A stretch of DNA of 40,904 bases from a virus (IMGVR_UViG_2687453163_000002:1-40904), one strand, 5' to 3'. Shown: positions 19,209 through 21,511, numbered from the stretch's first letter. A program made the numbers and translations. Notes: a model not told the origin generated them from the sequence alone.

Positions 19209-20617
19209 CCTCGATTAATCCTATCTTTGAACCGTTCATTGAGGCGCATCGCTACAAAGTCGCCAAAGGCGGTCGAGGTAGCGGTAAATCATGGGCAATT
19301 GCGAGGCTGCTTGTTGAAGCGGCGCGCCGACAGCCTGTGCGTATTCTCTGCGCTCGTGAACTGCAAAACAGTATCAGCGATTCGGTAATCCGGTTGCTTG
19401 AAGACACCATCGAGCGGGAAGGGTATTCGGCTGAGTTTGAAATTCAGCGTTCAATGATTCGTCATCTCGGAACTAATGCTGAATTCATGTTCTACGGCAT
19501 CAAAAACAACCCGACGAAGATTAAATCGCTCGAAGGCATTGATATCTGCTGGGTGGAAGAAGCGGAAGCGGTAACGAAGGAATCATGGGATATCCTGATT
19601 CCAACCATCCGTAAGCCGTTCTCTGAAATATGGGTGAGCTTTAACCCGAAGAACATCCTCGACGATACCTATCAGCGATTCGTCGTAAATCCTCCTGATG
19701 ATATTTGTCTGCTGACGGTGAACTACACCGACAACCCGCACTTTCCTGAAGTTCTCCGTCTGGAGATGGAAGAGTGTAAACGCAGAAATCCGACACTGTA
19801 TCGTCACATCTGGCTTGGTGAGCCAGTAAGCGCAAGTGATATGGCAATCATCAAACGTGAATGGCTTGAAGCCGCAACCGATGCGCACAAGAAACTCGGA
19901 TGGAAAGCGAAAGGCGCTGTTGTTTCTGCACATGACCCATCAGATACAGGGCCGGATGCCAAAGGTTATGCATCGCGCCACGGTTCGGTAGTTAAGCGCA
20001 TTGCCGAAGGTCTGCTGATGGACATCAACGAGGGTGCTGACTGGGCAACTTCGCTGGCGATTGAAGACGGTGCTGACCATTACCTGTGGGATGGTGATGG
20101 TGTTGGTGCCGGGCTACGCAGACAGACAACGGAAGCGTTCTCCGGCAAGAAAATCACCGCCACGATGTTCAAGGGCAGCGAATCGCCATTCGATGAAGAT
20201 GCTCCGTATCAGGCCGGAGCATGGGCTGATGAAGTCGTACAGGGTGACAACGTTCGCACTATTGGCGATGTGTTCCGCAATAAGCGAGCACAATTCTATT
20301 ACGCGCTGGCTGACAGGCTGTATCTGACATATCGGGCGGTTGTTCACGGTGAGTATGCAGACCCAGACGACATGCTGAGTTTCGACAAAGAAGCGATAGG
20401 CGAGAAGATGCTGGAGAAGCTGTTTGCAGAACTGACGCAGATTCAGCGCAAATTCAATAACAACGGGAAGCTGGAGCTAATGACTAAGGTCGAAATGAAG
20501 CAGAAGCTCGGTATTCCATCTCCTAACCTGGCTGATGCGCTGATGATGTGTATGCATTGCCCGGCATTGGTCCGCGAAGAAACAGAAATATACGTTCCCT
20601 CATCCTCCGGTTGGTAA
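19205..20617 (+). CDS. terminase large subunit
   Basis: 470-aa ORF with Walker A-like KVAKGGRGSGKS and C-terminal nuclease region; follows terS with a 4-nt overlap. Confidence 0.9.
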   Translation: MTSINPIFEPFIEAHRYKVAKGGRGSGKSWAIARLLVEAARRQPVRILCARELQNSISDSVIRLLEDTIEREGYSAEFEIQRSMIRHLGTNAEFMFYGIKNNPTKIKSLEGIDICWVEEAEAVTKESWDILIPTIRKPFSEIWVSFNPKNILDDTYQRFVVNPPDDICLLTVNYTDNPHFPEVLRLEMEECKRRNPTLYRHIWLGEPVSASDMAIIKREWLEAATDAHKKLGWKAKGAVVSAHDPSDTGPDAKGYASRHGSVVKRIAEGLLMDINEGADWATSLAIEDGADHYLWDGDGVGAGLRRQTTEAFSGKKITATMFKGSESPFDEDAPYQAGAWADEVVQGDNVRTIGDVFRNKRAQFYYALADRLYLTYRAVVHGEYADPDDMLSFDKEAIGEKMLEKLFAELTQIQRKFNNNGKLELMTKVEMKQKLGIPSPNLADALMMCMHCPALVREETEIYVPSSSGW

Positions 20618-21511
20618 ACATGGCAGAGACATTAGAGAAAAACATGAGCGGATCATGCTCAGGTTTGACCGCGCCTATTCTCCACAGAAGGAAGTGCGCG
20701 AAAAGTGCATTGAAGCTACGAGGTTTGCTCGTGTCCCCGGAGGTCAATGGGAAGGAGCAACGGCGGCTGGAACTAAGCTTGATGAGCAGTTCGAGAAGTA
20801 TCCTAAGTTTGAAATCAATAAGGTAGCAACTGAACTTAACCGCATCATTGCAGAATACCGCAATAACAGAATCACTGTTAAGTTTCGTCCTGGTGACAGA
20901 GAGGCAAGCGAAGAGTTAGCCAATAAATTAAATGGTCTGTTCCGTGCTGACTACGAAGAAACTGATGGCGGTGAGGCTTGCGATAATGCATTTGACGACG
21001 CTGCTACTGGTGGTTTCGGTTGCTTCCGTTTGACGTCGATGCTGGTCAATGAATACGACCCCATGGACGATCGTCAGCGTATTGCTATTGAACCAATATA
21101 CGACCCGTCGCGCTCTGTGTGGTTTGACCCTGACGCTAAGAAGTACGACAAATCTGACGCGTTGTGGGCGTTCTGTATGTATTCGTTGTCACCTGAAAAA
21201 TATGAGGCTGAATACGGGAAGAAACCTCCTACTTCTCTGGATGTAACGTCTATGACCAGTTGGGAATATAACTGGTTTGGTGCAGATGTTATTTACATAG
21301 CGAAGTATTACGAAGTTCGTAAAGAGTCTGTTGACGTCATCAGTTATCGACATCCAATCACTGGAGAGATTGCAACATACGACAGTGATCAGGTTGAAGA
21401 TATTGAAGATGAACTGGCAATAGCTGGATTTCATGAAGTGGCAAGGCGCTCAGTGAAGCGCCGTCGTGTGTATGTATCCGTAGTGGATGGTGATGGTTTC
21501 TGGATTTGCCC

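Follow-up and report, generated by a model that had tools for sequence, protein, structure and literature searches.

Does the portal gene in this prophage carry a genuine frameshift, a sequencing error or an unusual internal start? In the window (the whole 40,904-nt stretch of viral DNA that we analysed) an ATG at 20620 follows the terL stop at a translationally coupled position, and opens a frame that reads MAETLEKNMSGSCSGL..., differs from that of the portal and ends at 20826 after 68 codons. The portal frame opens past a TGA at 20544 and is without a start codon until ATG 20655, from which it reads MLRFDRAYSPQ.... Between the two ATGs lies a run of five As (A5), in the context GACATTAGAG-A5-CATGAGCGG, with A6 taking its place in the alternative allele. 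A sequence-only reading had described these two frames correctly, as the sequence and the ORF list both bear out, and had proposed that one A is missing, either as a second lesion in the gene, as a homopolymer sequencing error, or as a sign that the internal start is the one used.

No uninterrupted portal ORF runs from the terL-adjoining start, as ATG 20620 is out of frame and an IS2 element splits the gene further downstream (Table 1). The 68-codon ORF has no Pfam match, and exact look-ups of this 68-aa product, of a 92-aa out-of-frame ORF and of the 310-aa portal/IS2 fusion found none of them on record. The exact TerL protein is present on thousands of contigs, and the portal gene always lies directly 3′ of terL.

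Table 1. Features of the portal region and integrase gene, in window coordinates.
Feature	Position	Strand	Remarks
Integrase gene	205-1365		
terL, large terminase gene, 470 aa	19205-20617	+	From the ORF list; TAA stop at 20615-20617
Native portal start codon, ATG	20620-20622	+	2 nt past the terL stop; now out of the portal frame
Out-of-frame 68-codon ORF, MAETLEKNMSGS...*	20620-20826	+	From the ORF list; overlaps the portal 5′ end
5′ portal fragment, P22-like portal (PF16510)	20620-21500	+	Pfam E = 2.2e-70; ends at the IS2 insertion point
A5 tract, frameshifting deletion	20638-20642	+	One A short; A6 in Sf6 and almost every relative
First in-frame portal start, Met13 of Sf6 gp3	20655-20657	+	With A5, initiation is possible only here
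IS2 (IS3 family), 1331 bp, in the portal gene	21501-22831	-	From the reconstruction against Sf6
3′ portal fragment through the stop codon	22837-24081	+	With the 5′ fragment, rebuilds Sf6 gene 3 exactly

Restoring a single A to the run converts the frame of ATG 20620 into MAETLEKKHERIMLRFD, the start of gene 3 of Shigella phage Sf6, and because the two are identical in both protein and DNA this is not a chance resemblance. The 5′ portal fragment equals Sf6 gene 3 except for the missing A, and once an A is put in and IS2 is taken out together with a single target-duplication copy, the whole gene matches at 2127 of 2127 nt. The intact orthologue thus differs by one base within the run, and restoring that base restores the ORF, as in a frameshift pseudogene. 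Sf6 shares with the window a gene 3 start placed 2 nt past terL, which is where its annotation begins the gene, and membership of the P22_portal Pfam family (E = 1.2e-178 for gp3, profile positions 2-594); unlike the window it has A6 and an uninterrupted gene 3 (gp3, 708 aa; PDB 7SFS). The identity reaches well beyond the portal: window positions 20207-27125 equal Sf6 except for the A deletion and IS2, giving 5583 identical bases. This block carries no substitution relative to Sf6, whereas its flanks are only about 96-99% identical, which suggests that the head module was exchanged or shared very recently between Sf6 and this gtr prophage.

The A5 tract recurs in other genomes of the same lineage. 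The window matches CP012140.1, the genome of Shigella flexneri 4c strain 1205 (PMC5429569, PMC9455713), at 100% identity. TerL and two proteins of 162 and 161 aa are too widespread to serve as lineage markers; the head/tail-module-specific proteins of 472 and 431 aa occur on only about 14-26 contigs and isolate the lineage. Besides CP012140 we read across the site in five assemblies, with about 20 further similar contigs outside the comparison, and all five have A5: L072 (IMG 2660238153; 100% identical to the window over about 12 kb), L026 (IMG 2700989162; 100% over 2,058 bp of a 22.6-kb contig), L181 (GCA_014040595.1; 100% over 17.4 kb), L183 (GCA_028648215.1; 100% over 11.7 kb) and L186 (GCA_028648335.1; 100% over 19.5 kb, with 0 differences). 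Apart from that of L026 the contigs measure about 30-41 kb, and none of the five differs from the window in the compared stretches. Because five other distinct assemblies carry A5 within flanks that are 100% identical, it is a true allele and not an artefact: a genuine inherited deletion, A6 to A5, fixed in a small S. flexneri prophage clone.

Among more distant relatives the longer run prevails. The 161 bp around the site match Sf6, HK620 and their relatives at 98-100%, and find matches in 226 complete Escherichia coli genomes. With allele probes of 61 and 62 nt, exact A6 is present in 217 of 225 such genomes and exact A5 in a single one, strain BA22372; A7 is found in none of the complete E. 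coli genomes. A6 also occupies 107 of 109 IMG/VR contigs (the other two have A5) and all 26 metagenome contigs, and at ten inspected places with an identical TerL the run is A6 in every case and the called portal has 708 aa, starting at the ATG 2 nt past terL. A scan of species-representative genomes returned a match to neither allele. With A6 near-universal in the E. coli, IMG/VR, metagenome and identical-TerL sets, A6 is ancestral and A5 derived, and the E. coli, IMG/VR and metagenome sets hold no trustworthy A5 sequence outside the one S. flexneri clone. The proposal of a missing base is therefore upheld by Sf6 and more than 350 other sequences, which have A6 and start at the terL-adjoining ATG.

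The second interruption of the gene is an IS2 copy flanked by a 5-bp target duplication, GTTTC, at 21496-21500 and 22832-22836; elements that match it at 99.7% identity bear the annotation 'IS3-like element IS2 family transposase'. Of the relatives read, strain 1205 alone has IS2 at this portal site; L072, L181, L183 and L186 read through it uninterrupted, and the 2,058 bp compared in L026 stop short of it. The IS2-portal junction is likewise absent from the whole IMG/VR collection. Because A5 relatives read through the place where strain 1205 has IS2, the A deletion is the older of the two events, so that the proposed second lesion is indeed a lesion, but it came before IS2 and is not second in time. 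L072 has an IS2 end elsewhere (L072 positions 11946-12011, equivalent to 30088 in the window), inside a gp7-like ejection gene at 29533-30225 and inverted relative to the window copy; IS2 therefore struck this prophage independently in two strains.

We consider it probable that this inherited deletion, which cuts the portal off from its native start and predates IS2, has abolished or strongly reduced portal function. Slippage during replication of the homopolymer is the most likely origin of the change from A6 to A5, which falls in codons 7-8 of a portal gene of Sf6 type. The change goes back to the common ancestor of the small S. flexneri clone, and separated the portal frame from the native start that ribosomes finishing terL would normally reach. 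Ribosomes starting at 20620 would now read 68 out-of-frame codons, crossing ATG 20655 on the way, and stop at 20826. The portal frame could then be entered only at Met13, inside a region already translated in another frame, and the product would lack residues 1-12 (MAETLEKKHERI), which are ordered in the Sf6 virion. Loss or severe reduction of functional portal is the expected outcome, and some residual expression from Met13 may persist. In strain 1205 the later arrival of IS2 would have left the gene irreversibly dead. The clone shows 0 substitutions over up to 19.5 kb, and is for that reason too young for selection to be read from it.

What residues 1-12 do in related phages bears directly on this consequence. 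The Sf6 virion portal was built de novo by cryo-EM over residues 1-671, with the N termini lying in the wing domain, where they contact the ring of packaged DNA and are proposed to form part of a headful sensor (PMC9728967). As the virion portal is modelled from residue 1, the native ATG is used in Sf6 and residues 1-12 are structured, which disposes of the internal start as the native arrangement. The portal of Salmonella phage P22 (gene 1, 725 aa; PDB 3LJ5/5JJ3) belongs to the same family and is only distantly similar, aligning with Sf6 from residue 5-6 onward (E = 6e-95); the solved P22 portal places ENRLESILSRFD against EKKHERIMLRFD of Sf6, shows the same pattern of N-terminal residues ahead of the conserved RFD motif, and starts at a codon that abuts the terL stop. 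The sequence-only reading had likened the restored N terminus to that of P22, and the P22 sequence it gave is close to the real one, but the closest comparator is Sf6 gene 3. Three other P22-type portals (721, 725 and 733 aa) start with MAD... right where terL stops, and the FD motif follows 12-16 residues later. An N-terminal extension of 12-16 residues is accordingly kept in four of the four portal types compared, and Met13 is not conserved, its place being taken by L, C or S in the other three.

A reading that we regard as unlikely, yet serious enough to weigh closely, is that the deletion is real but tolerated, with enough portal made from Met13 and a 12-residue truncation that still permits assembly and packaging; A5 would then have been near-neutral until IS2 came. 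The IS2-free A5 relatives L181 and L186 do keep an otherwise intact late operon, and the P22_portal core in Pfam starts at residue 14, leaving residues 1-12 outside the curated core; as noted above, those same residues are nonetheless ordered in Sf6 virions, where the portal N termini contact DNA, and an extension of this kind is present in all four portal types. A tailed-phage virion needs 12 portal subunits, and for so few copies even weak initiation at Met13 might suffice. That initiation would be weak indeed: anti-Shine-Dalgarno pairing is -2.7 kcal/mol at ATG 20655, as against -4.9 at the native ATG and -6 to -8 at most late genes, placing it among the weakest in the late operon, and the internal AUG sits within a small hairpin (20645-20661) and inside an ORF whose translation begins at the coupled native start. 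Met13 is the gene callers' choice on many A6 genomes, which makes it look a plausible start; its lack of conservation and the confinement of credible A5 sequences to one clone point the other way. We likewise doubt that A5 is compatible with phage production in the IS2-free relatives, whether through a Met13 portal or a trace of slippage product.

The choice of Met13 in databases is an observation about annotation. A 696-aa portal starting at Met13 is recorded on 483 contigs and the 708-aa portal starting at the native ATG on 386, some of the 696-aa records being named 'portal protein [Shigella flexneri]'. All ten of the inspected places with the 696-aa protein (L161-L170) have A6, and we discarded this protein as a proxy for A5: it reflects the start chosen by gene callers on A6 DNA. 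Automatic callers thus often begin Sf6-type portals 12 codons late, also where the native start is intact, and the mis-annotation is widespread.

That the A5 of the window is an assembly undercall of a true A6 we consider very improbable. Homopolymer deletions are typical of assembly errors, and the two records that have A5 without belonging to the clone, those of phage HF4s and E. coli BA22372, look like errors of this kind. Five other assemblies, however, deposited under different accessions, show the same A5 with no other difference over as much as 19.5 kb, and the genomes are distinct: four lack IS2 at the portal site, L026 is a separate IMG genome record, and L072 has its IS2 elsewhere. 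The window and Sf6, moreover, agree at the four remaining A6 runs of the block in which they are identical. For the window, then, the suggestion of a homopolymer sequencing error does not hold.

The two records from outside the clone carry A5 on different SNP backgrounds. HF4s (MT833387, L001) resembles the window in its portal A5 and identical 161-bp surroundings, and its annotation starts the portal CDS at the counterpart of ATG 20655; unlike the window, it is a plaque-forming phage, and the SNP background in its portal gene is another one. Taken at face value, it would be a viable phage with a working A5, and we rejected it as such proof. The genome was sequenced on an IonProton at 45x (bioRxiv 10.1101/2021.06.09.447823). 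Exactly two indels, at 1865 and 4131, separate its first 4.9 kb from Sf6, and each shortens A6 to A5; they hit the portal and the scaffold genes, and the scaffold is consequently annotated as two CDS. The HF4s A5 is most likely an error and not a working allele, and the GenBank record very likely carries homopolymer errors in both genes. The sequence-only reading would have to give way if the closest homologues paired the same A5 tract with the internal start; the comparison with related portal genes found A6 to be usual, and that pairing in HF4s alone, the probably erroneous record with the second shortened run in its scaffold gene.

In E. coli BA22372 (L150), three CDS are annotated as 'frameshifted' within a random 50 kb (NZ_CP040397.1, 1000001-1050000), namely plsB, dusA and a SopA-family gene. 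plsB is an essential gene. This suggests residual indel errors across the 'complete' assembly, and the A5 of this strain is likely to be an assembly error as well. An apparent end of BA22372 portal homology at the window's IS2 site proved to be a comparison artefact, since against Sf6 the homology extends 36 bp more. With both A5 tracts best read as assembly errors, neither HF4s nor BA22372 shows a working A5 portal.

The least credible alternative is that ribosomal slippage (-1, or +2 of tRNA-Lys) or transcriptional slippage restores the portal, or that the run acts as a switch for phase variation of phage production: slippage is known to occur at A runs, and a -1 shift after GAG AAA gives exactly the wild-type MAETLEKKHERIM, but the zero-frame heptamer is G AAA AAC and not the canonical X XXY YYZ, the sole downstream hairpin starts immediately at the end of the run (20640/20645-20666) and not as a stimulatory structure 5-9 nt downstream, the fold of 20600-20720 is no better than shuffles (z = -0.09) and so gives no sign of an evolved frameshift signal, more than 350 relatives have a single-frame A6 in place of a conserved two-frame arrangement, and a run of 5-6 As falls far below the length of known contingency or transcriptional-slippage tracts, is almost invariably A6 in relatives, without A7 or a credible A5 outside the clone, and is uniformly A5 in the clone assemblies checked.

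A perfect 64-bp direct repeat at 145-208 and 39155-39218 (attL and attR) bounds a P22-like prophage of about 39 kb, the attL copy including the 3′ part of thrW (tRNA-Thr CGT, 115-190). Within the prophage gtrA, gtrB and a type-specific gtr gene of 421 aa span 36311-38865. Like other S. flexneri thrW gtr prophages it keeps its gtr cassette while its morphogenesis genes are struck by IS elements and point lesions; unlike them it has an Sf6-identical head module, whose specific proteins are confined to the few contigs noted above. The 421-aa type-specific Gtr protein (36311-37576, minus strand) has no Pfam hit, and exact matches to it appear in 1795 blocks of the collection, in S. flexneri genomes, beside very different and often IS-ridden structural modules. 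Phage SfX was reported to be inducible from strain 2002017 (PMC3306764); this is uninformative as a functional test of A5, the 2002017 genome not being among the carriers of the head module.

Other parts of the window deserve brief mention. Two phage-borne tRNA genes, tRNA-Asn(GTT) and tRNA-Thr(TGT), lie at 15051-15206, downstream of the gene for the late antiterminator, in agreement with the Sf6 annotation. An ORF at 34009-34551 on the minus strand, between the ejection-protein and tailspike genes, covers a stretch to which Sf6 has no match, and corresponds to a 166-aa gene in a related contig (L182, 15054-15554, minus strand) with HNH_3 and weak AP2 Pfam hits. To the right of attR (39215-40904) there is a truncated integrase fragment of 154 aa, matching Phage_integrase positions 57-171, followed by IS3-family transposase genes; this segment may be what is left of another element that had integrated at thrW and was cut by an IS.

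The evidence supports the earlier reading of a missing A as essentially right. A5 is ordinary prophage decay, and its importance lies mainly in correct annotation. This portal gene carries two independent lesions, whose order is established. The prophage is also a clean example of early decay in Shigella, in which the serotype-converting gtr cassette is kept and head genes are lost. If IS2-free A5 lysogens do make phage, they would offer a natural N-terminal truncation with which to test the headful-sensor role; and if the truncated portal is tolerated, the N-terminal arm of a P22-like portal, ordered and in contact with DNA, would be dispensable or would only modulate packaging.
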